DNA from: Candidatus Saccharimonadota bacterium
GTDB taxonomy: Bacteria > Patescibacteriota > Saccharimonadia > Saccharimonadales > JAGQNJ01
Reading direction: 5' to 3'
Length of the DNA: 62,959 nucleotides
NCBI GenBank assembly: GCA_036826295.1
Contig: DAISWO010000002.1
Coordinates: 159,294-222,252 of the forward strand
Shown: one piece after another, positions 16,377 through 59,140 of the stretch
How the letters are laid out: each line of letters begins with the position of its first letter
Position numbering within the stretch: the first letter of the stretch is position 1
The notes under the pieces: model-generated
Told to the model about the DNA's origin: nothing
Seen by the model: the letters and a program-made list of their open reading frames with translations, nothing else
Database searches by the model: none
Made by a program: the position numbers and the translations under genes

Positions 16377-16451
16377 TCCCGGGTAGCTCAATGGTGGAGC
16401 AAGAAGCTGTTAACTTCGAGGTTGCCGGTTCGAGTCCGGCCCCGGGAGCCA
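16377..16451 (+). tRNA. tRNA-Asn(GTT)
   Basis: TCCCGGG/CCCGGGA acceptor stem, D-loop TAGCTCAATGGT, anticodon loop CT-GTT-AA, GGTTCGAGTCC T-arm, encoded CCA. Confidence 0.96.
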
Positions 16452-19114: not shown

Positions 19115-21923
19115 AATAAATGCCACGCTCAATGACTTTCTGTTCAACCAAATAGAAAACGACCCTGCCTACATAGCGTGGCAAGCCGACTTTACTATTC
19201 CCGAATACGTTACCGACAATTTGAGTAAGACCCTGCGTGAATACCAAGTGATAGCCTTGAAGCACTTTATTTGGCTATATGAAACCGATAGAGCCAGAGC
19301 CAAGCACTTATTGTTCAATATGGCGACAGGTACAGGTAAAACGCTTGTAATGGCGTCTGTGGTGCTTTACCTGTATGCACAAGGCTATCGTAATTTCTTG
19401 TTTCTGGTTCATCAAATACAAATCAAAGACCAAGCACTAAAGAACTTTACCGATTATAAGTTTGAGAAGTACCTGTTCAATCCAAAAGGCGTAAGAATAA
19501 ACGGACGTAATGTAGCGGTCAAAGAAACAAAGAGCATAGCAGACGCAGACCGCAACGCTATAAACTTTATGTTTTTCAGCACCTCACTACTGTATAACCG
19601 ACTGCTTGAAGATAAAGAAAACGGACTTACAGCCCAAGATTTTGCCGACAATGATGTAGTGGTAATTGCCGATGAAGCCCATAGGCTCAACGTAGATACC
19701 AGAAGCAAAAAGAAAGCCGATATTGAAGAAGTACGAAACTGGGAAACTGCCGTTATGTCAGCAGTCAAAGCTCGTGAAGGAAACCTGCTACTTGAATATA
19801 CGGCAACTGTTGATTTAGCCAACCAAGCAATTCACGAAAAATACAAAGAAAAGTTAGTCCATCGCTACGACTTTTTAGAGTTCAACCGTGATGGGTATAG
19901 CAAGGACGTAAAGTTCTTATACAACAAAGAGGTTCATACCGAAGACCAAAAGCGTCTACTTATCATAAACGCCGTTGCTTTGAGCGAATATCGTAGGCTA
20001 CTTGCCGAGCGAGAGATGAAGGTAGATATGAAACCGATTGTACTTATAAAGTCAGTCAAAATTGCACAAAGCGAAGAAGACCGTGCGTTCTTTGACGCTG
20101 TTATTTCTAGCCTACGACCAGACGACTTGAACCGCTTGAAGGAACTTGCCAAGCAAAACATCAACCACGAACACGAAATACTGAACGATATGTTTGTGTG
20201 GCTAAAAGAGGCAAAAAACGGCTTTGTAACACAGGGCGACTGGGAAGGCTTGAATAAGTTTGTCAGCGAAATACGAGCCAGTTTTGCCCACGATAATACG
20301 CTCATATACAACAGCCAAAAGAAGGAAAAAGCCGAACTGTTGCCTTTGCTAGATAGCCCACGCAATACAATTCGTGCCATATTCAGTGTAAATGCCTTGA
20401 ACGAAGGTTGGGACGTATTGAGCCTATACGACATTATTCACTTTGATATTAGTGAAAGTAAAAAAGTTAGCCTTCAAGATATTCAGTTGATTGGTCGTGG
20501 TGCTAGGTATTTCCCTTATGAACTGCCACGCTCATACAAGCCAGATGATGACAGCAATAAACTATCACTTGATTTTGCCCAACGCAATTTGGAGTTTGAT
20601 ATAGACCGCCGAAAGTTTGATAATGCACCTTTTGAGCGTGGTCGTGTGCTGGAAACTTTTGTTTATCACTTCGTAAAGACTGGTATGTTCCTAGAAAACT
20701 TACAGCGTGATTTGCTTGGCGAAGGCATTATCAACGAAGGTGTTGAGCAAAAGACCATTACGCTAAAGACAAAGTTCCTTGAAAGTGAAACCTACAAAAA
20801 AGGCTTTGTATTGGTCAACCATACCATCAAGCGAACCAAGACAACCGAAGACGAGATTGACACTACTTTCAACCGCACTATCAAGGCAGGCTTGTATAAT
20901 CTACGAGCAAGAGGCTTATCTGACTATGAGCAAAATCAACAAATTGCGAGCCAGAAAACAAAAGTTATTCGTATTACCGATGAGTTTTTTGCCGAGCCTA
21001 TTATTCGCAAAGCATTGGTATCAGCCGAAGCCAACTTTTTCCGATACAACAATCTAGTTCATCACATACCCGACTTGAAGACGGTTGATGAACTGATAGA
21101 AAAGTACCTGCCGAAATACGAAATTACCTATACCTACGAAGACGGCAAAGATATTGGTCTACTGAACGCCCAAGAAAAACTACAACTACTTGTCGGTGCG
21201 ATACTGCCAGAAGTTCGCAGGCGTATAGACATTTATATGCCGAGAGAGGCAGGAAGTAACCAGTTTAGACCAGTATCGCTTTCCCAAGTGTTCGGCAAAG
21301 AAAAGAACATTTACTTGATGTCGTTCCCAAGTATTGACCTTACGACTGGCGAGAAAGTGTTCATAAGCACAGACGAGCGAGCCAAAGCTCAAAGCGACCA
21401 CGACAATCCTGATTTACAGTTCAATGTAAAAGGTGCTGATTGGTATGCGTATAGTGAAAACTATGGCACAAGCGAAGAAAAGAAGTTTGTAAAATACCTT
21501 GCAAGCCAGATTGACGACTTACACGCAAAATACAGTGGTTCGGAAGTATATCTAATTCGTAATGAACTAGACTACTGGCTATACAGTCTAAAAGATGGTC
21601 GTAGGTTCAGCCCAGACTATATGCTTATCATCAACGATGTAGTAAATCAGCAGTTGTATTACCAAGTCATTATTGAACCGAAGGGTGGACATATCATTGA
21701 ACAAGACGCTTGGAAGGAAGAAGCCTTGATAAGCCTGAACGATGACAGTGAAGTTGTGTTTGATACAAATGAAAACGACAAGCAGGCTTACAAAGAATAC
21801 TTGGCTGAAATGAGCAAGCACGGCTATAAAGAGATAAAGCCAATTGGCATAAAGTTCTATAACACTGACCCACGCCCCGAAAGCGAGTTTGCCCTAGATT
21901 TTGAGGCTAAATTGCTCGCCTAA
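19095..21923 (+). CDS. type III R-M restriction subunit (Res; SF2 helicase + nuclease)
   Basis: MATGTGKT, DEAH, EGWD, QLIGRGAR, C-terminal FSPDY...EPKG. Confidence 0.9.
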   Translation: MAKTKTKINATLNDFLFNQIENDPAYIAWQADFTIPEYVTDNLSKTLREYQVIALKHFIWLYETDRARAKHLLFNMATGTGKTLVMASVVLYLYAQGYRNFLFLVHQIQIKDQALKNFTDYKFEKYLFNPKGVRINGRNVAVKETKSIADADRNAINFMFFSTSLLYNRLLEDKENGLTAQDFADNDVVVIADEAHRLNVDTRSKKKADIEEVRNWETAVMSAVKAREGNLLLEYTATVDLANQAIHEKYKEKLVHRYDFLEFNRDGYSKDVKFLYNKEVHTEDQKRLLIINAVALSEYRRLLAEREMKVDMKPIVLIKSVKIAQSEEDRAFFDAVISSLRPDDLNRLKELAKQNINHEHEILNDMFVWLKEAKNGFVTQGDWEGLNKFVSEIRASFAHDNTLIYNSQKKEKAELLPLLDSPRNTIRAIFSVNALNEGWDVLSLYDIIHFDISESKKVSLQDIQLIGRGARYFPYELPRSYKPDDDSNKLSLDFAQRNLEFDIDRRKFDNAPFERGRVLETFVYHFVKTGMFLENLQRDLLGEGIINEGVEQKTITLKTKFLESETYKKGFVLVNHTIKRTKTTEDEIDTTFNRTIKAGLYNLRARGLSDYEQNQQIASQKTKVIRITDEFFAEPIIRKALVSAEANFFRYNNLVHHIPDLKTVDELIEKYLPKYEITYTYEDGKDIGLLNAQEKLQLLVGAILPEVRRRIDIYMPREAGSNQFRPVSLSQVFGKEKNIYLMSFPSIDLTTGEKVFISTDERAKAQSDHDNPDLQFNVKGADWYAYSENYGTSEEKKFVKYLASQIDDLHAKYSGSEVYLIRNELDYWLYSLKDGRRFSPDYMLIINDVVNQQLYYQVIIEPKGGHIIEQDAWKEEALISLNDDSEVVFDTNENDKQAYKEYLAEMSKHGYKEIKPIGIKFYNTDPRPESEFALDFEAKLLA

Positions 21924-45951: not shown

Positions 45952-46043
45952 GGAGAGGTGTCCGAGTGGTTGAAGGAGCACGCTTGGAAAGCGTGTATGT
46001 GAGGCAACTTGCATCGAGGGTTCGAATCCCTCTCTCTCCGCCA
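45952..46043 (+). tRNA. tRNA-Ser(GGA)
   Basis: GGAGAGG/TCTCTCC acceptor, CACGC-TT-GGA-AA-GCGTG anticodon arm, long variable arm, GGTTCGAATCC, encoded CCA. Confidence 0.97.
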
Positions 46044-46066
46044 AGAATAAAGTTCTTTTTTGACCC

Positions 46067-46109
46067 GTTCACCTAATGCCCTATATAGGGTAGGGTGAAC
46101 TTTTATTTT
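46067..46109 (+). terminator. element-supplied terminator for tRNA-Ser
   Basis: GTTCACC..TGCCCTA-TA-TAGGGTA-GGGTGAAC hairpin followed by TTTTATTTT. Confidence 0.7.
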
Positions 46110-46179
46110 CGGCTAAAATGTTATCTAAACGACGAAAAAAGCCATTCCCGTTCACATGGGCAGTAGGATTCGAACTTTA

Positions 46180-47478
46180 TTAGCTCAACTTTTTAGACCT
46201 ACGAGATCTTGCTACATATACCTTCTGATCTTCGAGGAATATTTCGCCAGTTACATATTGCAGAATCTCTCGTTTTTCTTCTTTAGACCCATGCTCTAGG
46301 ACATACTTTGCATACATTTTTAGATCTATGGCAGGTTTAGTTGTTGAGCCTTCTTTGTGTCCCAGAACTATGTTGAATCTGTCATATCGTTCTAATTCAT
46401 CCTTGAATTGCTTTTGGGCACCAATCTCATCAATTTCTAGGTTATCCACTAGAGCAAGGAGCTCTCGCATGAGATCAGCTTCTCTAACGTATGGCTGAAT
46501 GCAGTCGAGATCATTTGCTCTACCACAGTGATAGTAGACATAACGTCTGATCTCACCGGATTTAAGCTGTTTGATCTTTTCCTCGGCCGTAACACCTGTT
46601 TTACATACACCACACTTCAGCATCTTAGTGAAGCTGAACTCTTTACTACCTGCTGGTGCTTTCGGGGCTACGGTTAGCTGGATCTGCACTTTATCGAATA
46701 ATTCACGACTTATTAGGGGCTTGTGCTTGCCTTGATGCATTGTTGGCTTAGTTTTAGGGTATTTAAACTCTCCGTAATAAAAGGGGTTTCGAAGTGCCCG
46801 GAAAATGTGGCTAAGTACCAGACGTTTACCTTGCTTAGAGCGGAAATCAATATCATCTAGCCATCTTTTAACATCACGTCCTGTATAGGCGTTATTAGCA
46901 ACTCGTTCAAACATTTCCGTTATGATTGGCGCACGTTCATCGTCAATAATTATCTTTTCTTCGCCAAGACCATTGTTTAGGTATCCTATCGGAGCTTGAC
47001 CAGGACGCCAGCCGTTGGCTGCTTTATTGTGAAGCCCTCGAATAACATTCAGACCTCTGTTATCATTCTCTAGTTTTGCTTGTGATCCTAGAATCATTAG
47101 CAAGAATTTCTCATTTGGTGAGTTTGTGAAGGTCTGCCCGTGTGTTCTTATCTCAATAAGCTTGCCTTGATCCATCAAATCTACCAATATGCCTAGGTCT
47201 CCTGCGTTTCTGCTGAGTCTATCGGGAGCCCATGTCACAATTCCGTTGAAATATCCAAGTTGTATGTCTTTTATCAGTCGATTATAAACAGGTCTAGTGC
47301 CTGATTCTTTGGAAGAGTGGCTTTCTTTGCGAACTTCAACAATTTTTATGCCCCAGTGATCGGCCAGTAGCTCCATTTCTTTAATCTGTTGCTCGATTGA
47401 GAGAGCTTGACGTTCGTCTTGTTCTGACGATTTTCTGGCGTACAAACAGTACTTAAGTGGTTTCAGCTGGGGTGACAT
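46180..47478 (-). CDS. large serine recombinase (integrase)
   Basis: YARKSSE catalytic Ser, DRLSRN, recombinase domain, Zn ribbon CGVC...HC...C. Confidence 0.93.
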   Translation of the reverse strand: MSPQLKPLKYCLYARKSSEQDERQALSIEQQIKEMELLADHWGIKIVEVRKESHSSKESGTRPVYNRLIKDIQLGYFNGIVTWAPDRLSRNAGDLGILVDLMDQGKLIEIRTHGQTFTNSPNEKFLLMILGSQAKLENDNRGLNVIRGLHNKAANGWRPGQAPIGYLNNGLGEEKIIIDDERAPIITEMFERVANNAYTGRDVKRWLDDIDFRSKQGKRLVLSHIFRALRNPFYYGEFKYPKTKPTMHQGKHKPLISRELFDKVQIQLTVAPKAPAGSKEFSFTKMLKCGVCKTGVTAEEKIKQLKSGEIRRYVYYHCGRANDLDCIQPYVREADLMRELLALVDNLEIDEIGAQKQFKDELERYDRFNIVLGHKEGSTTKPAIDLKMYAKYVLEHGSKEEKREILQYVTGEIFLEDQKVYVARSRRSKKLS

Positions 47479-47578
47479 AGTAGTACAAAGGTACCAGTAA
47501 GTGTCACAAAGTCTAGGCCTATTTCACTTCCGCTTTGGATATTCTGATTGCTTGGTAAATAATGTATATGGAGGATAT

Positions 47579-48142
47579 ATGAAAACTATAACAATACAGA
47601 CAACAGTGTACGGTGAACCATCAACCCTAGAACTTATGGAGTTTGATGAGCTTGATAAGTTAAAATGGAAAGAACTCTTTGATTCTTGGAAAAAACTTAA
47701 ACTGGGAATGCGTGATTATAAATCACGAGAGCCAAACTTTCCTGAAGGCCTAAGTGAAAGTGCTTATTGTATCTGGTCTGGCTCGAAAAGATTTATTAAA
47801 GCTAGCGCAGGGACAAACGCATCATTTGTCACCTTCAATACCCAGACAAAAGAAGCTGAACAAATAAAAGCATGTAGCATTGATTCAGACTTAACTTCAT
47901 TTGGACCGACCTCAAAATGGGACAAATTAATATTCATGGATTTCTATGCTGACGGACTAGTAGATGGGTCCTTTAACGCGTACCAAATCCCAGACGAGTT
48001 AATCTACAATCACCAGATAAATAGAACTCAAACATTTAAAGATCAACAATTACAGGGAAGAAGACCAAGGCTATCTCTAAAAGATGTTATTGCTGAGAAT
48101 GATATTGAACCTATAGGAAAGAATGTAAAAATCTGGCTATAG
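47579..48142 (+). CDS. type II restriction endonuclease, Bsp6I-like
   Basis: REPNFPEGLSE, EQIKACSIDSDLTSFGP, QQLQGRRPR resemble the Bsp6I family as recalled; GGAGGA SD before 47579; faces a C5 MTase. Confidence 0.7.
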   Translation: MKTITIQTTVYGEPSTLELMEFDELDKLKWKELFDSWKKLKLGMRDYKSREPNFPEGLSESAYCIWSGSKRFIKASAGTNASFVTFNTQTKEAEQIKACSIDSDLTSFGPTSKWDKLIFMDFYADGLVDGSFNAYQIPDELIYNHQINRTQTFKDQQLQGRRPRLSLKDVIAENDIEPIGKNVKIWL

Positions 48143-49696
48143 GACTTTTAGCATTTGCTTCGCAATTCTCTTAATAACAGGGACAGTAACCGAATTACCA
48201 ACTTGTTTATATAGAGCCGAGTCAGCGATATCAGGTAGAACATAATTCTTTGGGTAGCCCTGTATTCTTAGGCATTCTTTTGGCGTTAGTTTTCTGATCC
48301 CTTTGCCGTCAAATATTATCGGTACGTTGTGTCCGCCCATCCCCATATTTGCAGTTAATGTTGGACAAACACCCTTTTTGTTTTTCCTTACATATTTTCT
48401 ACGCCACTGGTAAACTTCATTCTGCTCTGTAACATCATCCTTGATCTTTTCATATAGAGGTTTTCCATTGTAGTAATATTTTTCATCAACTTTTTTTTCA
48501 AGAATATCTTTAATGCTTTTTTCTAGTTTAATTGGGTCGGGGAACTCAAACGCTTCAGTTTTATTATGGTCTTTGAAGCCTACAATATAAATTCTCTCTC
48601 TGTTTTGAGGAACATTACCGTATTCCATGCTGTTCATAATTTTGTGTTTAATTGAATAGCCTAGATCTTTTAATGTTTCTTCAATAACTTTGAATGTATT
48701 CCCGCCATCGTGAGATTTAAGATTTTTTACGTTTTCCAATAAAAACCCTTCGGGTTTTCTTGCTTCGATAATTCTAGCTATATCAAAGAATAAATTACCT
48801 CTACCTTTTTTATCATCGAATCCGTGTCTGTATCCTGCTATCGAAAATGCCTGGCACGGAAAACCACCAAGCAGAAAATCAAATTCAGGCAAATCATCCA
48901 CTTTTATTTTGGTGATATCTTCTACAACTAATTTAGAATCCTTGAAATTCATATCATAGGTATATTTACATTTATCATCAAAGTCATTTGCGAATACTGT
49001 TTTAAATCCTTCATTTTCAAATCCAATCCTGATTCCACCAATACCTGCAAACAAATCCAATGTTCGCCACGTTTTTGTTCTCAATTGATCTTCCTTATCA
49101 TCATCTTGTTTATAATTCCTTCTTACTGACCAGACAACTCCCCTTACTTCAACTTCATTTCTGAATAAAGGCAATAGTTTTTGATTTGCTGGTTGAAGCT
49201 TAAATCTATTACCATCTCGATATAGTTTTTTGAGTGTGGCCCGATTATCATCGATTACTGCAACTACTGTTTGGCCATTTTGGGCTGATGTTTGTTTTTT
49301 TATAACCACAGTGTCGCCATCAAAAATGCCTTCGTCTATCATGCTATCGCCCTTAACCTTCAAAGCATAGAAAGTTCCTGAAGCAGGTAGTCCGGCCACT
49401 GCTACTTGCTCCTGATCAACTTCCTCGATCGCCTCAATAGGTTGCCCAGCTGTAATAGTACCTACGATTGGCACTTTGTCGCTCCTAGGACGATTGTCAG
49501 ACAGTTCGTATCCTTGGTAATTTTCAGACTTTTCTAGAAAACCTTGCCCTACTAATTTAGACAGGTGGCTATGTATTGTAGAGACTGACTTAAGACCTAG
49601 TCCCGATGATATTTCTGATAAAGTAGGGAATTCACCGTATTGATCCTTGTGCTTTTTAATAAAGTCTAAAACTTGGGTTTGTCTATTTGTGCTCAT
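48137..49696 (-). CDS. LexA repressor fused to C5-cytosine DNA methyltransferase
   Basis: Residues 1-~196: wHTH, Ala83-Gly84 cleavage site, Ser118 (GDSM), Lys156. Residues ~205-519: DLFAGIGG, GFPCQ, ENV, QNRER, GNSV. One uninterrupted frame. Confidence 0.9.
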   Translation of the reverse strand: MSTNRQTQVLDFIKKHKDQYGEFPTLSEISSGLGLKSVSTIHSHLSKLVGQGFLEKSENYQGYELSDNRPRSDKVPIVGTITAGQPIEAIEEVDQEQVAVAGLPASGTFYALKVKGDSMIDEGIFDGDTVVIKKQTSAQNGQTVVAVIDDNRATLKKLYRDGNRFKLQPANQKLLPLFRNEVEVRGVVWSVRRNYKQDDDKEDQLRTKTWRTLDLFAGIGGIRIGFENEGFKTVFANDFDDKCKYTYDMNFKDSKLVVEDITKIKVDDLPEFDFLLGGFPCQAFSIAGYRHGFDDKKGRGNLFFDIARIIEARKPEGFLLENVKNLKSHDGGNTFKVIEETLKDLGYSIKHKIMNSMEYGNVPQNRERIYIVGFKDHNKTEAFEFPDPIKLEKSIKDILEKKVDEKYYYNGKPLYEKIKDDVTEQNEVYQWRRKYVRKNKKGVCPTLTANMGMGGHNVPIIFDGKGIRKLTPKECLRIQGYPKNYVLPDIADSALYKQVGNSVTVPVIKRIAKQMLKVL

Positions 49697-49709
49697 ATTA
49701 TTAATATAT

Positions 49710-49727
49710 ACGAAAATACACGAAAAT
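49710..49727 (-). promoter_or_regulatory. direct repeat in lexA-MTase promoter (candidate operator)
   Basis: ACGAAAAT twice with 10-bp period, 13 nt upstream of the start codon. Confidence 0.45.
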
Positions 49728-49901
49728 GTAAGCTTTTCTATAATTCTATTGCTTTAGAGGAATTGAAAATAATTGCTATAGAAACAAAGAACAAGGTTTC
49801 ACAAAAACCTGAAATTTTCTTTAAGTAGTATAATTACACTCGAGGAGTACAGAAGAGCGGAGCAAATAGTTTATCAATAGCTCTAATTTACAAATTTACG
49901 T

Positions 49902-52022
49902 ATGAGAATCGATCTACACGCGCACACACAAAATTGTAAGGTTGGCGACGGAGATAAAAGGAATATCAGCCCTGAGCAATTCGTTAATAAAATGAAAAGC
50001 AACGGTGTTGGCATTTGCTCTATAACAAACCATAACAAATTCGACAATGATGAATACAAAAAAGTAATTGGTGCTGCTGGTGACTTAGTCGTGTTCCCTG
50101 GGATTGAGCTGGATGTGATGTTCGAAGGTGAAGAACGGCAAATAATCGTTGTAGCCAACCCCGAATTAGCGGATAAGTTCTACTCAGTTTTTGATGACGA
50201 ACCGGAGCGAGATCTTGATAATCACGTCCTGGAGTACGATGATTTCTTAGAAAAAGTAAATGAGTTTACTAACGACGAGATAGTAATTATTGCGCACTTC
50301 ATGAATAAAGCTAAGGGTTTCAAAGTTGAAGAAAGAAGCACCCTGTATTCTGACCTGTCTGACTATTCCCTCGTACTTGAAACAAGCAATTTACGATCTA
50401 TGGGTTTTGTAAACGGTCATATGGAAAAAATTTGCTTGATTGGCAGTGATGTAAAAGATTGGGATAAGTACAGCGGAGATGAGTTGCCAGAAATTAAATT
50501 TGGAATTGATTCCTTTGGTAAATTTTACGAACTTGCTAGTGACCCTGTAAACTTTGTTAAAAATTGTCTCGACGGCGCTCCTAAGCATGCGGTTTCTGTA
50601 GACGATGATGGCTCGTTAATAGATATATTCGAGGACGTAAATGTTATTTTTGGAGAGAAGGGCTCTGGGAAAACAGTCCTACTCAAGGATCGCATCCATC
50701 CGGGATTAAAAAGAATTGGCAAGAATACCGTGCTTCACCTCGGCGAACGATATGAAGAATACTATGAAAATATTATCAAAGATCATTCCACTGCCATTGA
50801 AATTGACTCAGAACTCCAATCGGAGATTTTGACCGAATTTGATAGCATTGTGGACTATCAAGAAGAGCCACACGATAATTTTATCAAAGACTATTTAGCA
50901 TATAAAAAGGATGATAATAAAAATAAACAAGCTAAGACAATAAATAAGAGAAATGCTTCCTTCTCAAGTGGTATTGGTGAAACCATTGAAAGACGAATCA
51001 GACAGGCTCAAAGTAACATCACGAGTATATCTGAAGTATCTGATATAAATCGTAAAATCGACAGAAGTCAGGAACTCAGAAGAGAAGCACTGGAGACAGA
51101 GCTTGTAGTCTTAAAAGAAGATGTACAAAGTAATGTGACAAGCTTCTTTAGAAATTACTTTGTTAATAACGGTACAGAAAGTTTACTTAGAGCCATTAAA
51201 GAAACAGTAAGAAAAGAAAGTGGCGTAATCTCGAAACCTACAAATATTGGCTTTTCGAAACTGGTCTCAAAGCGACTTGAAAGAACAAGATCTAACTTAT
51301 ATTTAACAAAGTCGTTAGAGGCCATAGGGCACAAGACATCTGTGCTCATTGGTGAATTACCAAAAAAAGGTAAGGTGCGTCTTGAAATTGAAATACAAGT
51401 TATGCCCCAAGGGTTTATTTGGTCTTCCGACTCTGTATTTGATAAAAATACAGTGAGAGAAAATAGAGAAATCTTAAGTAGAATCCATCAATTTTCACCC
51501 AATAATTTTCCAAACATTAATGATCACTTCAATAGTGAACATATATCGGGCGAACTTACCGGTGAAGATTTCGTAGATCAAGTAGTCAGAAAGAGTACCA
51601 AAATAAAGATTAAGAATAATGGTAGTTATCACCCCTCACCTGGAGAGAAGGCGATCCTCTCCATCACCGGTACGCTAGAATCCTACGATTATTCGTGTTA
51701 CCTTTTTGACGAGATCGAGAAAGGCTTAGGACACAAATACATAGCTGAGTACTTAATCCCACAAATCAAAAAACTCAGAGACAGGGGCAAAACTATCATA
51801 TTAACAACCCATGATGCGAACATAGCTGTTAGTACACTACCGAGCCAAACAATCTACTGTTCATATCCAGATGAAGAAATATACTATGAAGGCAACATGT
51901 ATTCAAATGAGCTAATCGGTATTAAGAGTGGCTCCAAGCTGAATTGGCTTGATGAAGCTATAGTTCACCTTGAAGGTGGTAATAAAATGTTTAGTAAACG
52001 GAGGAATATTTATGGAGCCTGA
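49902..52022 (+). CDS. PHP-domain phosphoesterase + ABC-type ATPase (Ppl-like defence protein)
   Basis: DLHAHT, TNHN, GIE, IAH, GSD; GEKGSGKT, SPGEK, LFDEIE, TTHDAN. Confidence 0.8.
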   Translation: MRIDLHAHTQNCKVGDGDKRNISPEQFVNKMKSNGVGICSITNHNKFDNDEYKKVIGAAGDLVVFPGIELDVMFEGEERQIIVVANPELADKFYSVFDDEPERDLDNHVLEYDDFLEKVNEFTNDEIVIIAHFMNKAKGFKVEERSTLYSDLSDYSLVLETSNLRSMGFVNGHMEKICLIGSDVKDWDKYSGDELPEIKFGIDSFGKFYELASDPVNFVKNCLDGAPKHAVSVDDDGSLIDIFEDVNVIFGEKGSGKTVLLKDRIHPGLKRIGKNTVLHLGERYEEYYENIIKDHSTAIEIDSELQSEILTEFDSIVDYQEEPHDNFIKDYLAYKKDDNKNKQAKTINKRNASFSSGIGETIERRIRQAQSNITSISEVSDINRKIDRSQELRREALETELVVLKEDVQSNVTSFFRNYFVNNGTESLLRAIKETVRKESGVISKPTNIGFSKLVSKRLERTRSNLYLTKSLEAIGHKTSVLIGELPKKGKVRLEIEIQVMPQGFIWSSDSVFDKNTVRENREILSRIHQFSPNNFPNINDHFNSEHISGELTGEDFVDQVVRKSTKIKIKNNGSYHPSPGEKAILSITGTLESYDYSCYLFDEIEKGLGHKYIAEYLIPQIKKLRDRGKTIILTTHDANIAVSTLPSQTIYCSYPDEEIYYEGNMYSNELIGIKSGSKLNWLDEAIVHLEGGNKMFSKRRNIYGA

Positions 52023-52368
52023 TGATGAATTAGAAACCAAGAAAATACTAGTAAAAATTAAGAGGCAGAGTCAAGGAGAGGAAGACGAAGCTGTTCAATT
52101 AGTTTTTGAAAAGATCGATGACAACAAGGATGTGGAGGTTGATTTATCAGATAGTGGCGTCGATGACATAAAGAAGCTTTTTGATTCAGTCTTTACGCTC
52201 ATAAATGACTCTAAGCAGTTATTAGAGTTTCAGCTTTCTGATGCGGAAAACGATTTATACTTTCAAGTTTCTCAGGAAGTTGTTTCACAGCTAAACACTG
52301 AAGTACAGGAATCTGAAGCTCACTTTAGAGAAATCTGGAACCTAACAGAAGAATTACAAGAAGACTGA
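52012..52368 (+). CDS. small acidic protein coupled to the PHP-ATPase
   Basis: GGAGGA SD, ATG at 52012 overlapping the upstream stop; 118 aa. Confidence 0.7.
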   Translation: MEPDDELETKKILVKIKRQSQGEEDEAVQLVFEKIDDNKDVEVDLSDSGVDDIKKLFDSVFTLINDSKQLLEFQLSDAENDLYFQVSQEVVSQLNTEVQESEAHFREIWNLTEELQED

Positions 52369-52394
52369 TTAGAAAAGTAGCTTCGCAACAGAGG

Positions 52395-52422
52395 TTAGAC
52401 CTGCTATACTGAGCAGGTCTAA
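52395..52422. terminator. hairpin after PHP-ATPase operon
   Basis: TTAGACCTGCT-N6-AGCAGGTCTAA perfect 11-bp stem; weak T tract. Confidence 0.5.
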
Positions 52423-52570
52423 ACCAATTATTGAGATATGAAAATATCTTGTTTTGAACAGATAAACCCATAAATGGGCATCCGTTCAAAAGCTATTTGG
52501 GTTTATCTCAGTAGTTGGTTTAGACACCTAGAGCGGGTGTCCTTTTATTTTCCCGCAGGAAGGATAAATA

Positions 52571-53668
52571 ATGGCAATAATAATTTCCGAAAACGGCAAG
52601 AACGCAAAGAAACTAGAATCTGCTGGCTTTGGACCAGAAGACAATCTCCAGAAGTTTATTACAGATAATCCTGAGACTGTTCCGGTATACGATATCCGTG
52701 AAGATATCCGGCTATTGATTCTGGCTCGTGAATTTCCAACTAACAGCGGACCAATAGACGCACTTGGAGTCGACCAAGACGGCACAATCTACATCATTGA
52801 GACCAAACTCTATAAAAACCCCGACAAACGCCTCGTAATAGCTCAGGCCTTAGACTATGGAGCATCAATGTGGCGACATGTTACAGATTTCGATGACTTT
52901 ACTCATAGACTAGAAGGCAAGGTACAGCAACAGTTCAACATGAGCCTGCGAGACAAATTAGAAGATTTCTTTGGCATCGATGACGAAGCCGTCTCTACGC
53001 TATTACAAAACGTTCAAGATAATCTCAGTGCTGGCAAATTCAAATTCGTAGTTTTAATGGACCAACTGCACGATCGGCTCAAAGACCTGATCGTCTTTAT
53101 TAACCAGAACAGTCAGTTTGATGTATTTGCCGTAGAACTAAAGTACTACAAACACGAAAAATATGAGATCACTATCCCTAAGCTATTTGGGGCTGAAGTT
53201 AAGAAAGATGTGGTTTCTACTAAGTCTAGTTCTGGTAAACGTCGCAAGTGGGACGAACAGTCATACTGGGAGGAAGTAGCGAACAATCTTGATGCTCAGA
53301 AAGCCAAAGCACTAAGAACCTTTTACGATTGGTCACTCGCTAAAGCTGATAAAGTTACGTGGGGTACAGGTGCTTCCAGGGGCTCTTTCAACCCAATATT
53401 CGAGCGCATATCTCCAATATCCTTCTGCTCCGTTTTTACTGATGGTTCAGTTCAAATAAGCTACGGCTATCTACCGGCAGAAGAAGATATTGAAATTCGT
53501 AAACGCTTGCGCGATACGTTGGCAAAACATGTAACTGTTCCTGAAGTTACAGACGTAAAAGATGAAGCTCTGAAATCTACCTACAAATCGATACCAGCCG
53601 AATACGTTGAAAAGAACGTAGACAAAATCATTGCGGCACTCGAAGAATTTACAGGTAAAACCCTGTAG
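52571..53668 (+). CDS. NucS/EndoMS-like PD-(D/E)xK endonuclease domain protein
   Basis: E..LQ..I, GPIDALGVD..GTIYIIETK, QALDY; separate C-terminal domain. Confidence 0.7.
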   Translation: MAIIISENGKNAKKLESAGFGPEDNLQKFITDNPETVPVYDIREDIRLLILAREFPTNSGPIDALGVDQDGTIYIIETKLYKNPDKRLVIAQALDYGASMWRHVTDFDDFTHRLEGKVQQQFNMSLRDKLEDFFGIDDEAVSTLLQNVQDNLSAGKFKFVVLMDQLHDRLKDLIVFINQNSQFDVFAVELKYYKHEKYEITIPKLFGAEVKKDVVSTKSSSGKRRKWDEQSYWEEVANNLDAQKAKALRTFYDWSLAKADKVTWGTGASRGSFNPIFERISPISFCSVFTDGSVQISYGYLPAEEDIEIRKRLRDTLAKHVTVPEVTDVKDEALKSTYKSIPAEYVEKNVDKIIAALEEFTGKTL

Positions 53669-55193
53669 ACGAACCGAAGAACTCGTCATCCGAGGCTGTC
53701 GCTACGTTGTAACGGCGACTTCTGGTGCGAGGGCTGCGATCGAAAACAGAGCCTTTTACAGGTCCCGTATGAAAGCCAGGGATATTGTTTTTCTGTTCCA
53801 TCATGTAGATGATACCTAGTGTTAAAGCATCAAGCAGATCGTCTCGTTCTACTCCGAAGCCAATAACTTGTTGCAGCAACTTTTTACAACCCTCTTGAGG
53901 GAACTGGACTGTTCCGTTAAGGATCCAAAAAGATGCTACCTGTAGGCGCTCTTCTTTATCCCGACCATTGAGTGGTATAGCTTCGGCTCGCATATTCTCT
54001 TGGCTTAACATTTCGATGATTGCTCGTTGCATACCAACATCTTCAATGTAGATATCGGCAGAGGTATGGCGTGACTTAAGCGAAACGATGTCCTTAACGG
54101 TTTCGCTGTAAAGGTTACGTTTGTTGATCGGGTAAGGGTAAACGTAGATCTTGGCATCTTTGCCGTAACCGTGTTTTTCCATTACAACAATGGCTGTATA
54201 GTCGGCGGACGTTTTCTTGGAGATTGCTAGGTCTACACAAATGGCAATGCGATATGAACCACCAACCAGTTGTGGCGGTATTGCTTCGTAGTAGGTGATG
54301 TTCTCGGGTTTAACGATCTGCATGTTGTCTGGCAAGATTTTCAGTAGGTACTCTCGGTAGTAGGCACGTTCGCTGGGGGCTTCCTTTTTTTCTCGTTCAA
54401 CAGCTTCGGGTGTTGGATACTTTCCAGGCCAGATGCATACGCCAGCATCGTTAATCAGGGGGTATTCTTTGAACACGAACCGCTCGGGTTGTCTTTCACT
54501 AAAAGCTTTCATCCGCATCATTAGTGAATCGGTGTGTAGTAGGTTTCCGATCAGTACAAACTTAGTGCTCTGATCACCAACAGGTAGTATCTCACTGGTG
54601 TACCAATCAAAGGTTTTCTCTCGACCTTCACTAGTTTTTACCGACTGTAAGTCCTCCACATCGTCAGCAATTACTAGGTCTGGACGGTGTGACCCATGAC
54701 GGGTGCCACGAATACTTTGCTCGCTAGATACAGCACTGATACGAGCACCGTATTTTGGTAACACCAGCGACATCGAACCCCATTCGTCGCTAGTTTCTTT
54801 TAGTGGCCCGAAATCATTACGTAATAATTCGTTACTGTCGAACTCTTGTTTAGCGTTGGCGAGGTGTTTTCGGGCTTGGACTTGGGTTTGGCTAGCAATC
54901 AGGGCGTATTTCTTTTCTTGTTTGCCTAGAATTGCCCACATTAGAAAGAAGGTGGTTACAATGCTACTTTTGCCACTACCTCTAAAGCTAACAATGCCGA
55001 GGTGTCGTATAGACGGATCTTCTAACATCGCATACATCTGTTGCTGAAAAGGGGCAGTTTGGTACTCAAAATAGTCCGGGAAGTAGATGTGGGCAAAGTT
55101 ATAGACGCTTTCGCGGGCTAGCTTGACGCGAACACTGCGTTTAGTTTGAATCTCTTGCCATAGCTTTGGTGAAAAGGGTGATTCGGGATTCAT
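53649..55193 (-). CDS. phage terminase large subunit
   Basis: FRGSGKSS Walker A, IRGTRH..RPDLVIADDVED, VDLA..ADYTA and RDDLLDAL nuclease aspartates. Confidence 0.88.
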   Translation of the reverse strand: MNPESPFSPKLWQEIQTKRSVRVKLARESVYNFAHIYFPDYFEYQTAPFQQQMYAMLEDPSIRHLGIVSFRGSGKSSIVTTFFLMWAILGKQEKKYALIASQTQVQARKHLANAKQEFDSNELLRNDFGPLKETSDEWGSMSLVLPKYGARISAVSSEQSIRGTRHGSHRPDLVIADDVEDLQSVKTSEGREKTFDWYTSEILPVGDQSTKFVLIGNLLHTDSLMMRMKAFSERQPERFVFKEYPLINDAGVCIWPGKYPTPEAVEREKKEAPSERAYYREYLLKILPDNMQIVKPENITYYEAIPPQLVGGSYRIAICVDLAISKKTSADYTAIVVMEKHGYGKDAKIYVYPYPINKRNLYSETVKDIVSLKSRHTSADIYIEDVGMQRAIIEMLSQENMRAEAIPLNGRDKEERLQVASFWILNGTVQFPQEGCKKLLQQVIGFGVERDDLLDALTLGIIYMMEQKNNIPGFHTGPVKGSVFDRSPRTRSRRYNVATASDDEFFGSSTGFYL

Positions 55194-55597
55194 TGCGATA
55201 CCTCGCTCTTACTAAGTAACAATCCAGCATTCTTTAGAGCCTTTTCAACTAACTCCGTCTGTTCTGTAGTTAGCTCTTCGGTTTTATGGGTAATCCGACC
55301 ATCGACTCTAATACGTGCCTCGTAGGCAGGGTGGTGGTGCTTGAGCCAAAAGATTATCGCTGTCATGTTCTGGTCTTTTATGGCTGCGATTAACTGGCTC
55401 TCGGCCATATCATTAATCCGGCCAGCACTTTCTACGATGGCTTCATCACAAGCTGTAGCAAAATCTTCATCATCCTTGCGCCACCTATAGTAGGTGGCGC
55501 GCGACATGCCTATTTGTTTGCAAACAACTTCAACAATCGGGGTTTTTTGCAGACGTTCGATCATTTCCTTCTTAGTCTTTTCTTGGTTACGACTCAT
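55190..55597 (-). CDS. putative terminase small subunit (HTH)
   Basis: CKQIGMSRATYYRWRKDDEDF, AIIFWLKHH; overlaps the terL start. Confidence 0.72.
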   Translation of the reverse strand: MSRNQEKTKKEMIERLQKTPIVEVVCKQIGMSRATYYRWRKDDEDFATACDEAIVESAGRINDMAESQLIAAIKDQNMTAIIFWLKHHHPAYEARIRVDGRITHKTEELTTEQTELVEKALKNAGLLLSKSEVSQ

Positions 55598-56919
55598 GAC
55601 AACTTCTCCCGCTTAAGACCAGTTAGTTTTTCCCAGCGTTTCATGATTACCTCCGCGTACACCGGGCTTTTCTCCATTAAATAGCAACGACGTTTGAGTA
55701 TTGTTGCTCCAATCAACGTAGACCCTGAGCCCCCAAAAGTCTCTATTACAATATCTCCCCGTTTAGTCAATACCTTTATGTAGGGAATCAGGATGGGAAC
55801 GGGCTTAGTACCGAAAATTATGCCTTGCCCGCTGTGCTTTTCATCTTCGGCTGAGTGTTCAATGAAATCAGTCGGCTGATACTTCTTGCCCTTAGCATGC
55901 GGCTCCCACTGTGGTTTACCGGAAATAGCATACAGAGCTGTTTCGTACTCCTCTTGCAGTCCGTCCGGCTCTTTATCGTGGTTGTAGGGCACTGTACCTT
56001 TTGCACCAACAACTGCAATATCGTACTTCGAAAAAAATTTGTACTTTGCAGCGAAGTTTTGATGCCTGTTGGCCAAATGCCAGACGATCATGTTTTTTAC
56101 TTTCCAGTGTTTTTCCATCTCGCCCCATATAGTCCGTAAATTTTTCCAATTTTCGTAGACTATGATGCTGAAATCTTCTTTAGCTACTTTGGCAACGTTT
56201 GCCATCCAAAGTTCGGTGAAGTTGTCTGGCAGTTCGTCAGTTTCTAGGTAGCGACGGTTGCGCTTAGCACCAAAGCCAGTTACGGCTTTTCCGTGTCGTT
56301 TAGCACCTAGATAATCCAAAATGTAGGGTGGGTCGCACAGGCAAAGTGATGCTTGTTCGCCGTTCATGAGTTTCAGAACGTCTGCTTCAACTGTGGAATC
56401 ACCAACCATAAGACGGCTATCGCCTAATTTGTAGATATCACCTTTTTTGGCGGTGATTTTCTTGATATCGAGTTTCTTTAGCTCTTTATCAAGATCGAAT
56501 GTCTCTGGCTCCACCAGATCGACGTCGAAGATGGTGTCTAGCTCTTCACTGGTGAATCCAACATCATCGAGCAGTTTTTCATCGAACTGACCAAGTAACT
56601 CCCAGTTCCATTCGCCTTGATTGCGGTTCAATCGAAGATTGAGTTCTTTTTCCTTGGCTTCGTCCGGAATGTTGATATAGACCACCGGAACTTCCTTGAA
56701 GCCCAAGTCTTTGGCTACTCTGAGCCTAAAGTGACCGCCAATCACAATGTTTTTTCGGCTCTTAGCGCTGTTTACCAAAAGTGGGTCAACTAGACCAAAG
56801 CGTTTGATACTCTCCGTTAATCCTTCTATTGCTTCTGTGCTCCAGCTACGAGGGTTGTACTTCGAGGCTTTGAGCTCACTGATCTTTATTTGTTTGATAT
56901 TTAGTTGTTCTTGAGACAT
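55594..56919 (-). CDS. ParB-like domain + N4/N6 DNA methyltransferase
   Basis: YNPR...FGLVDPL...GGHFR; CDPPY; ETFGGSGSTL. Confidence 0.88.
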   Translation of the reverse strand: MSQEQLNIKQIKISELKASKYNPRSWSTEAIEGLTESIKRFGLVDPLLVNSAKSRKNIVIGGHFRLRVAKDLGFKEVPVVYINIPDEAKEKELNLRLNRNQGEWNWELLGQFDEKLLDDVGFTSEELDTIFDVDLVEPETFDLDKELKKLDIKKITAKKGDIYKLGDSRLMVGDSTVEADVLKLMNGEQASLCLCDPPYILDYLGAKRHGKAVTGFGAKRNRRYLETDELPDNFTELWMANVAKVAKEDFSIIVYENWKNLRTIWGEMEKHWKVKNMIVWHLANRHQNFAAKYKFFSKYDIAVVGAKGTVPYNHDKEPDGLQEEYETALYAISGKPQWEPHAKGKKYQPTDFIEHSAEDEKHSGQGIIFGTKPVPILIPYIKVLTKRGDIVIETFGGSGSTLIGATILKRRCYLMEKSPVYAEVIMKRWEKLTGLKREKLS

Positions 56920-56978
56920 GGTTTTCTCCTTCCGTCTCGTGGTTTATCCCACGATACGTCCAGAGTTTTTGTTAAAAC

Positions 56979-57036
56979 AAAAAGACGACCATGAGAAATA
57001 AACCGTTAATGATTTATTTCCTTGAGTCGTCTTTTT
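56979..57036 (-). terminator. long hairpin in the leader of the ParB-MTase/terS/terL operon
   Basis: AAAAAGACGAC/GTCGTCTTTTT outer stem, GAAATAAA/TTTATTTC inner stem; followed by T-rich run on the minus strand. Confidence 0.6.
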
Positions 57037-57192
57037 AAGCAGACTTATTTATTCTCTTAGAAATTGCTGTTAATTAAATGTTCGAGCGTGTGCTCACTGA
57101 AAGAGTAACACACCTAAAACCTACAATGCAATATTACAAACTCTTGTAAACCCTAGCAAACTCTATCTGTTATTGAGCTATAATAAGACATT

Positions 57193-57549
57193 ATGAGAAC
57201 AAAATTTGGCATTCCTCAAGATCAACTAGATGAAATTGTAACTCGCGATATTGATTGCATTTACTGCCACAAAACCATGATTCTACCCTATGACGTTAAT
57301 AACCGTTCCGATTCTGCCACTATAGAGCACCTGAACCATCGAGCAGATTGGGATAGTGTTAGGGATTTCGTTAGCAATGGGAAGCAAGTACATTCAATTA
57401 TTGGGTTATGCTGCGGGGGTTGCAACTCAAGTCGAAGGGATCTGCCGCTTCTTGCTTGGTTTAACGCCGAATATTGTAAATCCAGAAAGATTGATGAAGA
57501 CACGGTGTCCGATGTGGTTCGTAGTTATATCTCAGAATACGAAAAGTAA
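57193..57549 (+). CDS. small HNH endonuclease
   Basis: CIYC...ATIEHL...CCGGCNSSR. Confidence 0.8.
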   Translation: MRTKFGIPQDQLDEIVTRDIDCIYCHKTMILPYDVNNRSDSATIEHLNHRADWDSVRDFVSNGKQVHSIIGLCCGGCNSSRRDLPLLAWFNAEYCKSRKIDEDTVSDVVRSYISEYEK

Positions 57550-57597
57550 TCCTGCTTGGAAATCTAGAAACGAACTCTGAAGATGTAAAATTAGGTT

Positions 57598-58791
57598 ATG
57601 TACACTCACCTTAAAGAACGTCAATTATACGAAGACATTTATGATCGCCACACTGTGGAAGATGCCCGGCGAGGTATGGTTCATTACGAAAAGTTCCACG
57701 CTGATTTTGAAAAGAAACTCCCGAAAGACGACAAGATTGACCGACCCGGTAATGCACTTCTGCTGAATGTGTTTTACATGCAAACAGTCGGTAATGGCTT
57801 ACTCGATCGCTACGAAAAACGAGAGCAAAGTATCAACGACTGGATGGCAAAAGACGAAGCCAAAGACGAGCAGATTGCTGGTGCTAGGTTGGGACAAGAA
57901 CCATACTGCCACCACTGTAAAAAGCAAGGTCTGCGGATTACTGATAAGTCCCTCATGCACCGTGGCAAAACCTACAACATCGGTGACCCCGAAGAAGTGC
58001 TCTTTATGCTCCACTGTACACACTGCGACAAGAACAGCGCTATTTGGGAAGACGGCACCGCTTGGAAGCCAAGGCCAACGCTTTGCCCGAAGTGTAAAGC
58101 TGAAATGAAGCACAAGGTAACCAAATCAAAGAAAGCGCTGACTTTTACCTATACCTGCCCATCGTGTAGCCATAGCTATAAGGACAGAACTGATCTTAGT
58201 GACAAGAAAGAAAAACCAGATCCTGAATACGACCAAGACAAAGTGACTTATTGCCTTTTAGATAAAGAGTTTCGCGATAGGATGATAGCTATCAAGCAAG
58301 GTTTTGAGGATATGGCTCGGCTCGGTAAAGAGGTTAAGGAAAAGGAAGATAACAAGCACATATACGATGCGGTGAAGGAGCTTAAGAAGCCAAAGATCGC
58401 CGAGCTTACACCATTGCTTGCTCCAACTCTCGAAAAAGCTGGTTATATTGAGTTCCACCTAGATAAACCGGAAATAGGTCGTGATGTCTTCATTGGTTTT
58501 AGCTGCTTAGATAGTAAATCCGACCGTGAAGACTACGACAGTAGAAAAACTCTCCAGAAGCTAGTTAAAAAGACTCTGGAGGATACCAATTGGCGGTTGA
58601 TGAGTGATGGAGTGTCCTATCGGCTTGGTTATTTGAATGGCAGGCTCCGAGCTTACGAACGAAAGGACGATTTAAAGGAGTTAGTTATCAAGAGCAAGAA
58701 GTTGAAACCCAAGCAAGAACCTAGCAAGGCTGACCTAAAAAAGAACGCCTACACCATCAAAGACAAAGATGGCAACGACATACTCCTATGA
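57598..58791 (+). CDS. hypothetical multi-zinc-ribbon protein
   Basis: Four CxxC pairs: CHHC, CTHC, CPKC, CPSC. Confidence 0.75.
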   Translation: MYTHLKERQLYEDIYDRHTVEDARRGMVHYEKFHADFEKKLPKDDKIDRPGNALLLNVFYMQTVGNGLLDRYEKREQSINDWMAKDEAKDEQIAGARLGQEPYCHHCKKQGLRITDKSLMHRGKTYNIGDPEEVLFMLHCTHCDKNSAIWEDGTAWKPRPTLCPKCKAEMKHKVTKSKKALTFTYTCPSCSHSYKDRTDLSDKKEKPDPEYDQDKVTYCLLDKEFRDRMIAIKQGFEDMARLGKEVKEKEDNKHIYDAVKELKKPKIAELTPLLAPTLEKAGYIEFHLDKPEIGRDVFIGFSCLDSKSDREDYDSRKTLQKLVKKTLEDTNWRLMSDGVSYRLGYLNGRLRAYERKDDLKELVIKSKKLKPKQEPSKADLKKNAYTIKDKDGNDILL

Positions 58792-58966
58792 TGTTACCCC
58801 TGTTAGCGACAAAATAATGCGACACGGTCATTTATGGTGTGCCGTGTCTCATTTGTCTCGTTTTTATCTGTAAAGTGCTAAAATATGAGACAAGGTCTGA
58901 GTTCCAGACCCGTGTGTTCCGCCAAACTATGACAGCCATTTGTGGCTGTTTTAGTTTGGCGTAACA

Positions 58967-59101
58967 GGAGGTGGGTTCGAACCCGATAGGGTGAGAAATG
59001 CCCAGAATGGCATTTCGCAAGGAAATCTTCTGATGGCAACTTGTTGCCAATCATGAAGTTTCGGGCCTGCGGAACGTAGGCGAATCCCTCTCTCTCCGCC
59101 A
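58967..59101 (+). other. multi-hairpin element closed by the attR tRNA 3' end
   Basis: GGAGGTGGGTTCG (58967-79) pairs with 59081-93; three internal hairpins; ends CCA. Confidence 0.45.
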
Positions 59102-59140
59102 ATAAAATACCCCCATCTGACTAGGTGGGGTTATTTTATT
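59101..59140 (+). terminator. native tRNA-Ser terminator after attR
   Basis: AATAAAATACCCCCATCT/AGGTGGGGTTATTTTATT hairpin. Confidence 0.75.

Follow-up and report, generated by a model that had tools for sequence, protein, structure and literature searches.

We know of no damage-sensing solution to the self-killing of hosts by type II restriction-modification (R-M) systems when methylation lags. In the closest described systems, those of the SsoII type, an N-terminal domain of the DNA methyltransferase (MTase) binds the promoter of its own gene (M) and sets the MTase level, and no separate controller (C) protein is used (PMC12707154; PMC3874152). It is established that the SOS response sets in upon self-restriction or when an R-M system is unbalanced (PMC3874152). 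Damage-induced restriction alleviation has been described for type I systems only, where it proceeds via proteolysis; HsdR is degraded by ClpXP, with control of assembly in type IC systems, and the process is post-translational and dependent on a host protease (PMC12707154). LexA is not mentioned in a 2025 review of R-M biology (PMC12707154). The DNA analysed here, referred to throughout as the window, is a stretch of 62,959 nucleotides from a Candidatus Saccharimonadota bacterium (contig DAISWO010000002.1, positions 159,294 to 222,252), and was found to carry a gene for a LexA-C5 DNA MTase fusion beside a gene (R) for a type II restriction endonuclease (REase). On balance, it is favoured that this locus is a type II R-M system in which the fusion would repress its own gene and cleavage of the fusion upon DNA damage would raise MTase expression.

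The fusion gene and its convergent endonuclease

The open reading frame (ORF) list, Pfam matches and homologues placed the fusion gene at 48137..49696 (stop included) on the (-) strand, where an ORF of 519 amino acids (aa) runs without an internal stop. The N-terminal ~190 residues of the product align with Thermotoga and Escherichia coli LexA structures (E ~1e-24), the aligned segment being aa 3-191 for T. maritima and aa 3-178 for E. coli, and the C-terminal ~300 residues match M.HhaI structures over their full length (E=8e-62). From the N-terminus, and all on the (-) strand, the gene encodes a LexA winged-helix DNA-binding domain (aa 3-57; 49526..49690; PF01726 LexA_DNA_bind, E=3e-12, and LexA structure alignment) with ..KSVSTIHSHLSKL.. 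as its recognition helix, a Peptidase_S24 catalytic and dimerisation domain (aa 76-188; 49133..49471; PF00717, E=9e-26), a charged junction linker (aa 191-210; 49067..49126) and a C5 cytosine DNA MTase domain (aa 211-516; 48149..49066; PF00145 DNA_methylase, E=1e-93). The PF00145 match spans profile positions 2-323 of 324, and motif conservation identified the catalytic Cys281 (48854-48856) in a PCQ motif.

In the structure alignment, residues A83-G84, S118 and K156 of the window protein are in register with A84-G85, S119 and K156 of E. coli LexA, and the segments PIVGTITAGQPI, KGDSM and ATLKKL correspond to PLVGRVAAGEPL, SGMSM and VTVKRL, respectively. On the basis of this alignment, together with conservation among homologues, Ala83-Gly84 (codons 49445..49450) is predicted to be the self-cleavage bond, and Ser118 (49343-49345) and Lys156 (49229-49231) to be the catalytic dyad.

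An AlphaFold2 model of the fusion (mean predicted local distance difference test score, pLDDT, 80.6) contains three folded modules, with low-confidence stretches at the linkers (aa 68-72 and 196-206) and at the floppy catalytic loop of C5 MTases (aa 282-300). The junction linker is also poorly conserved (column identity 0.43; pLDDT <50 at aa 196-206), and as no in-frame Met is present within aa 191-210, it offers no ATG start for a separate MTase. A first-pass annotation of the window had claimed that one 519-aa frame joins a complete LexA to a full C5 MTase, and this was borne out by the uninterrupted ORF, the Pfam matches and the structure alignments.

The same annotation had reported a convergent type II REase gene overlapping the fusion gene by 6 nt and no gene for a C protein, and both observations were confirmed. 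The gene at 47579..48142 on the (+) strand encodes a 187-aa Bsp6I-family type II REase (PF09504 RE_Bsp6I, E=5e-12; PADLOC REase_II, E=1e-25) and is preceded by a GGAGG ribosome-binding site. The two genes lie tail-to-tail, sharing positions 48137-48142, with no terminator present between them in the window, and no small helix-turn-helix (HTH) ORF of the C-protein kind was found in or beside the gene pair (47479-49901). A promoter-like site for the REase gene, TGGATA-16-AATAAT (47536..47563, (+) strand), is free of the LexA-box repeat described below, and the region upstream of this gene was found to include neither an operator-type repeat nor a palindrome. Judged from the C5 MTase motifs I, IV, VI and X and the target-recognition domain, and from the adjacent gene for a cognate-type REase, the pair is a type II R-M system.

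A GCNGC specificity, which had also been predicted, is plausible in view of partners from the Bsp6I and NgoFVII families. GCSGC and GCWGC are among the lowest 5-mers in the window by observed/expected ratio (O/E 0.64 and 0.72, respectively), yet the depletion is modest, so that site avoidance backs this specificity weakly and strong GCNGC avoidance was rejected as a proof of it. The 3 kb that include the REase gene, the fusion gene and their promoters (47019-50072) contain zero GCNGC sites where ~3 would be expected at the local GC content, a difference that is not significant.

Recurrence of the fusion and its predicted operator

When 5.8 billion proteins were searched with the window fusion as query, at least 120 protein clusters with the identical three-domain architecture were found at 66-75% identity, many of their members being located on contigs of 0.2-0.8 Mb. 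The named members come from Saccharibacteria (TM7), Nomurabacteria and soil Patescibacteria, and are annotated merely as "transcriptional repressor LexA". The DNA was examined for 16 C5-type loci from Saccharibacteria, Paceibacterota, Nomurabacteria and Staskawiczbacteria metagenome-assembled genomes, and their neighbourhoods were mutually unrelated. Presence of the same fusion in independent genomes had been proposed as a check on the window sequence, and as the same uninterrupted ORF occurs in at least 120 independent clusters and in these 16 loci, the fusion is not an assembly artefact.

Gly84, Ser118 and Lys156 are invariant among 120 C5 homologues and Ala83 is nearly so, and in 30 aligned C5 fusions Gly84 is again invariant and Ala83 at least 90% conserved. 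The MTase motifs are likewise invariant among the 120, and FAGIGG, PCQ (C281), ENV and QxGNSV show no variation across the 30 homologues aligned. Mean column identity among the 120 homologues is 0.85 for the MTase and 0.77 for the S24 domain, and is lowest, at 0.59, for the winged helix.

The LexA part is not confined to C5 MTases. Most of the ~60 closest matches from a search of 1.84 billion cluster representatives with this part alone (aa 1-205) had a length of 280-890 aa and an N-terminal LexA, and LexA proteins of the ordinary 200-aa size appeared only from ~41-47% identity. All ten of the long matches that were checked join LexA to a DNA MTase, of the N6_N4, N6_Mtase/Eco57I or TaqI type or a double C5 plus Eco57I arrangement. 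A metagenome scan with an alignment of the LexA part identified 80 loci, which carry no taxonomy, and each of the 51 complete ORFs of at least 400 aa encodes S24 and a DNA MTase; 30 of these are N6_N4, 10 C5, 7 D12/Dam-class and 4 Eco57I/N6_Mtase. The Ala-Gly, Ser and Lys residues are all invariant in 51 of 51 of these fusions to four MTase classes, and conservation of the bond and dyad residues supports the view that cleavage competence is under selection.

The gene following the fusion gene is directly convergent in 41 of 47 fusion loci, and in 5 of the remaining 6 a second MTase gene is followed by a convergent gene. In the metagenome loci the downstream genes belong to the Bsp6I, MvaI/BcnI, BsaWI, TaqI, EcoRV, Tsp45I, R.Pab1 and EndoVII/HNH families, to which NgoFVII and Alw26I are added when all loci are considered, and at least nine endonuclease families are represented overall. 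At a named Patescibacteria locus (L166), genes for a LexA-m6A MTase and a C5 MTase stand with a convergent gene for an Alw26I-family endonuclease, which makes a typical type IIS set. In the C5-type loci, a gene directly after the fusion stop is always present; it nearly always converges on the fusion gene, at a distance of 0 to -11 nt, and belongs to one of at least five unrelated families. Bsp6I-like partners occur in the window, L004 and L006-L009 (49-61% identity to the window REase in L006-L009), NgoFVII-like partners in L001, L013 and L015, and a 271-277-aa family without a Pfam match in L002, L011 and L012; the partner genes in L010 and L020 are singletons.

Close relatives of the MTase part that stand alone (≤72% identity; some from Saccharibacteria and some on viral contigs) have partners from the same endonuclease families, and LexA was absent from their fetched flanks (within 6 kb). 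Five of the six with an identified partner (L014, L017, L086-L088) are co-directional operons in the order M-R or R-M, and the sixth (L018) is convergent. In IMG/VR, the best 80 relatives found for the MTase include no fusion on a viral contig, which is weak evidence as the 600 candidates from which these came were selected by MTase motifs. The MTase encoded at L018 (5794-7988, on a contig labelled uncultured archaeon) shares 64% identity and has a 70-aa N-terminal extension in the place of LexA, and its convergent partner is 38% identical to the endonuclease candidate of L020; the extension may represent another type of fused regulator within the same gene arrangement.

Split forms were also observed, in which a lexA gene encoding 196-219 aa is followed after 4-36 nt by an MTase gene (L066, 1716-4108; L192, 773-5079; L175, 445-1821). 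The MTases seen in this arrangement are of the C5, C5+Eco57I double and N6_N4 types, and a convergent gene follows the MTase gene in L066 and L192. In L066, which is from Saccharibacteria, a 219-aa lexA, 12 nt, a C5 MTase gene and a convergent LlaMI-family endonuclease gene succeed each other. By their sequence layout, these loci look like pre-fusion or post-fission states.

In a tree of the LexA part, which is a rough neighbour-joining tree, standalone LexAs in a housekeeping context are basal and the fused LexAs form one large clade with the MTase classes intermixed. The few solo LexAs inside the fused clade include the split forms L192 and L175 and others (L170, L194 and L228) with no adjacent MTase gene detected. 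As the MTase classes are intermixed in this clade, the tree suggests that LexA and its promoter form a portable cassette, which was joined to various MTases by recombination, and LexA would then serve as a portable, module-private sensor rather than as a global regulator.

A sigma-70-like promoter for the fusion gene was located at 49703..49732 on the (-) strand, with a -35 element CTTACA (49727-49732), an 18-nt spacer and a -10 element TATATT (49703-49708). The spacer is filled by a tandem direct repeat, ATTTTCGTGT|ATTTTCGTAT, with a 10-bp period (49708..49727, (-) strand), which touches the -10 hexamer, is the only such tandem in the window and recurs in kin loci; it is the predicted LexA operator. 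The layout GCTTAC(A) / ATTTTCGTAT ATTTTCGTAT / TATAAT is common to the window, L001, L002 and L004 with the same spacing, and other clades have the same layout, usually with an 11-bp period and with units of TTCGGT, TTTCTAT, TTCGGG or TTTCGTA. The period is 10 bp in the window, L001, L002, L004 and L012 and 11 bp in nearly all other fused or standalone loci. The fusion ATG is 6 nt past the -10 element in the window (49694-49708) and 6-8 nt past it in the Saccharibacteria subgroup (L001, L002, L004), with no Shine-Dalgarno sequence, and the fusion mRNA of this subgroup is thus probably leaderless. Leaders in other fusion subgroups are 30-40 nt long.

An 8-mer repeat (≤1 mismatch) with an exact 11-bp period was detected in the 90 nt upstream of 43 of 64 fused loci, and one with a 10-bp period in 6 more. 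Shuffled sequences gave 2.7 per period and coding and far-upstream controls 0-2, so that enrichment over shuffles is 16-fold. The half-site varies with the recognition helix, as STAH[F/Y/H] helices pair with TTTCTA in 13 of 16 cases and with TTCGG in none, ST[V/I]H[Q/E]H helices pair with TTCGG ~30 times and never with TTCTA, and the helix of the window group pairs with TTTCGTA. The STAH helix type is found in two separate regions of the tree. Comparable repeats with an 11-bp period and TTTCGCC units precede standalone lexA genes of the candidate phyla radiation (CPR), and direct-repeat LexA boxes are known in Alphaproteobacteria (PMC8565304). Because of the enrichment, the covariation with the helix, the repeats at standalone CPR lexA genes and the known direct-repeat boxes, the upstream tandem repeats are best read as LexA operators. 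Such a large natural set of co-varying helix and operator pairs would be useful for the LexA recognition code.

A palindromic operator, TACG-N4-CGTA, seen in L001 was rejected, as it is not kept in the window, L002 and L004 while the direct repeat is kept. A tandem-repeat search of the 63 kb found the promoter of the fusion gene only, and a regulon in the window was rejected; single half-sites number 14 in the window against 8.4 expected, which is close to chance. At endonuclease promoters the LexA box was found in 6 of 50 upstream regions, equal to background.

A consensus DnaA box (TGTGGATAA / TTATCCACA, ≤1 mismatch, either orientation) was additionally observed within 120 nt upstream of 44 of 66 LexA-MTase genes, where the background rate of the same loci predicts ~2.6. 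It usually lies 15-25 nt upstream of the LexA box, for example at -76, -83 and -85 from the fusion ATG in L006, L166 and L171, respectively, and is not present in the fusion promoter of the window itself. Among solo lexA loci it was found in 4 of 21, all of them in the fused clade (the split forms L066 and L192 included), and at none of the basal standalone lexA genes. This distribution suggests an input from the replication initiator into MTase expression and, if the association is real, R-M control would be tied to the replication cycle.

Damage-responsive control and competing explanations

The domain architecture, the conserved residues, the covariation of operator and helix, the convergent REases and the recurrence across MTase classes can be read directly from the loci compared, and are consistent with the following mechanism. 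The fusion, dimerised through its S24 domain, would bind the tandem repeat in its own promoter and repress itself, thereby setting the MTase level. The REase gene has a separate, box-free promoter, and its transcription would run head-on towards the MTase gene, with no terminator lying in the way. RecA filaments on single-stranded DNA, formed when DNA is damaged from outside or when under-methylated sites are cut by the system's own REase, would stimulate self-cleavage at Ala83-Gly84 and free the DNA-binding domain, and the promoter would be derepressed and more MTase made. As the box is found at the M promoter only, damage should raise M, and as R is transcribed head-on without a terminator, the stronger convergent transcription may also dampen REase expression through transcriptional interference. 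The net effect would be a damage-triggered rise of the methylation-to-restriction ratio, a type II counterpart of restriction alleviation. Since self-restriction is known to induce SOS, the proposed loop would be homeostatic, with cuts activating RecA, RecA activation raising MTase and more MTase leading to fewer cuts.

The earlier suggestion of an SOS-switchable, self-repressing R-M system gains comparative support from the invariant bond and dyad, the promoter repeat and the box-free REase promoter, and stands as a prediction. A self-repressing MTase that responds to SOS is the best reading of many more loci than this one. Tentatively, a modular class of R-M controllers may extend across the phylum Patescibacteria, in which a cassette of promoter, LexA box and cleavable LexA is joined to C5, N6/N4, Dam-class or Eco57I/TaqI-class MTases and would provide RecA-sensed restriction alleviation, with a DnaA box tying MTase supply to replication initiation in most lineages and the fusion being, in Saccharibacteria, maybe the only LexA of the cell. 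If true, the self-cleaving LexA inside an MTase would be a damage-sensing answer to lagging methylation in type II R-M. CRISPR is largely absent from Patescibacteria and Saccharibacteria, which are believed to depend on R-M, and control of this kind would bear on their biology and on their genetic transformation, where MTase and REase levels matter.

Several points weigh against this interpretation. All of it is drawn from sequence comparison, and DNA binding, RecA-dependent cleavage, a stable and active S24-MTase fragment and a rise rather than a fall in methylation are inferred from it. The locus samples were chosen by similarity among 600 candidate stretches, and proportions in them are not prevalences. 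Interference by convergent transcription is deduced from just two features, that no terminator is seen and that the genes overlap at their 3' ends, and avoidance of GCNGC in the window is only mild. If methylation rose in the course of an SOS response set off by a phage, the phage would benefit, which is a drawback for a defence system, and a standalone LexA, if one is present in the same genomes, may bring crosstalk with the host SOS regulon. The fragments of E. coli LexA are degraded after cleavage, and if the S24-MTase fragment were turned over in the same way, damage could lower MTase activity.

With an unstable fragment, the same wiring becomes a suicide or abortive-infection switch, an unlikely alternative in which cleavage would mark the S24-MTase fragment for loss and the stable REase would persist and kill the cell once sustained RecA activation, for example by phage replication, had stripped protection. 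The strict conservation of the cleavage machinery fits such a switch, as does the independent transcription of the REase gene outside LexA box control, and the module is accompanied by other defence candidates in the window and in L004. R-M systems are moreover addiction modules similar to toxin-antitoxin pairs, in which loss of the MTase kills with SOS induction (PMC3874152). However, cleavage would also derepress the promoter and bring up new fusion protein, so that net loss of MTase would require fast turnover of the fragment, and killing would be slow, as methylation lasts until it is diluted by replication. The AlphaFold2 model places a flexible linker between S24 and the MTase, and cleavage 130 residues upstream need not touch catalysis.

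It is likewise unlikely that the fusion is a general SOS repressor, perhaps the sole LexA of Saccharibacteria, with the MTase as a passenger or with the R-M system having captured the host damage regulator to become indispensable. The same type of operator would then also precede recA, uvr and similar genes. The fusions are annotated by NCBI as plain LexA repressors, they share their type of operator with standalone CPR lexA genes, and no second LexA or S24 ORF was found within the 63-kb window. When a standalone LexA from CPR was used as query, its top 120 relatives included many with Parcubacteria-type names and no standalone LexA bearing a Saccharibacteria name, a result that settles nothing. 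Against these points, the gene is on a 13-kb island in the window (see below) and in unrelated neighbourhoods elsewhere, a patchy, mobile distribution that is not that of a core gene, and close Saccharibacteria relatives with the MTase only have no LexA within 6 kb. The fused LexAs also form a clade apart from the standalone LexAs in a housekeeping context. The window has no recA or uvr genes and no second operator, though a stretch of 63 kb is too short for a verdict on a regulon.

Rather improbable is a third alternative, that the LexA part is a dimeric DNA-binding autorepressor only, in the manner of the N-terminal domain of M.SsoII or M.Ecl18kI, and that self-cleavage has no physiological role. 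Non-cleaving relatives of the S24 family usually lose residues of the cleavage bond and dyad, and the fusions keep them, in 51 of 51 across MTase classes and, with Ala83 nearly invariant, in the 120 C5 homologues; the DNA-binding domain is the least conserved module (0.59 against 0.77 for S24). What remains in its favour is that the operator is in the MTase gene's own promoter and that autoregulating repressor domains fused to MTases are established (PMC12707154; PMC3874152).

The genetic context of the R-M module in the window bears on the last alternative. The module is carried by an integrated island of ~13 kb (46023..59105) bounded by a 25-nt direct repeat of the 3' end of tRNA-Ser(gga) (46023-46047 and 59081-59105; 24 of 25 identical, att-like). 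The island also encodes a large serine recombinase (46180-47478, (-) strand), a PHP-AAA protein that is a candidate defence gene product (PADLOC candidate PDC-M49A-like; 49902-52022), a PDC-S11-like defence candidate (52571-53668), large and small terminase-like proteins (53649-55193 and 55190-55597, both (-) strand) and a ParB-N6/N4 MTase (55594-56919, (-) strand), and resembles either a prophage remnant or a defence island of the satellite type. Genes for a MacB-type ABC transporter, SerS, TyrS, ATP synthase and an archaeal-type S-adenosylmethionine synthetase make up its housekeeping flanks. S24 repressors commonly control prophages and integrative and conjugative elements, and the fusion gene is 0.7 kb from the serine recombinase gene on an island with terminase-like and ParB-MTase genes, but the idea, already raised in the first-pass annotation, that the fusion is the element's immunity or induction repressor, holding the recombinase and element genes off until SOS in the CI/SetR manner, found no support and is very improbable, as the single tandem operator in the window is at the fusion promoter, with none before the recombinase or terminase genes, and the LexA-MTase-REase module occurs without island or recombinase, in housekeeping contexts among others, in L001, L002 and many metagenomic loci.

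Elsewhere in the window (17411-21923), near tRNA-Asn (16377-16451), a 567-aa protein with a CcrM/beta-class adenine MTase region is encoded by a gene that overlaps the start of a 942-aa ORF with a faint match to a restriction endonuclease. These two ORFs may represent a second R-M-like pair beside another tRNA gene.

Comparison with described regulatory systems

The nearest counterparts of the fusion are M.SsoII, M.Ecl18kI, M.EcoRII and M.MspI, which are likewise C5 MTases with an N-terminal DNA-binding domain on a flexible linker, and the predicted operator in the M promoter, with the binding that it implies, extends the likeness. However, the SsoII-type domains are small, of the Cro/Xre HTH type, with no peptidase and no known signal input, whereas the fusion has a full LexA with S24. 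The M and R genes of SsoII-type systems are divergent with competing, overlapping promoters, while R is convergent in 46 of 47 fusion loci, and the tandem direct-repeat operator and the presence of the same LexA module on four unrelated MTase classes are further differences. Going by these features, the fusion would act like the SsoII/Ecl18kI class but is not a member of it.

With canonical LexA (MEROPS S24) the fusion shares the signatures of the two-domain fold, the Ala-Gly bond, the Ser/Lys dyad and a box, here predicted, in its own promoter. It differs in that a complete DNA MTase at the C-terminus makes it longer, LexA itself being ~200 aa, and in that it is encoded in mobile R-M modules and not in a housekeeping context, with no regulon beyond its own gene in the window. 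Repressors of the CI/SetR type have operators at lytic, excision or transfer promoters, whereas the sole tandem operator of the island is at the fusion promoter.

Systems that use a C protein resemble the fusion loci in that a transcription factor encoded by the R-M system times or balances M and R. The C transcripts of such systems, and those of many R-M controller genes, are often leaderless, and the fusion mRNA of the window also seems to be. In contrast to these systems, the fusion loci have no separate C gene and no C-box palindrome, and the regulator is joined to M, not to R, and includes a signal-sensing peptidase. Toxin-antitoxin modules repressed by LexA (symE, tisB, dinJ-yafQ and yafNO) are also addiction-type modules wired to SOS (PMC3874152); in modules of the symE/tisB type, the host LexA acts in trans on the toxin or operon promoter, whereas the fusion has its own LexA joined to the antitoxin-like component.

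The proposed shift away from restriction after damage, by which unmodified self DNA would survive, resembles type I restriction alleviation (PMC12707154), though the control envisaged here would be transcriptional, built into the MTase and part of a type II system. LexA-MTase fusions were not described in the full-text literature searched, which did not include the study of the Patescibacteria SOS network by Sanchez-Osuna, Barbe and Erill (2017; Environ Microbiol 19:3465). Set against the known R-M autoregulators that are fused to an MTase, what appears to be new is a repressor of a signal-sensing, self-cleaving kind that recurs with several MTase classes. Its recurrence in dozens of unrelated R-M systems of Patescibacteria suggests that self-protection may be coupled to DNA damage in a manner not described so far.

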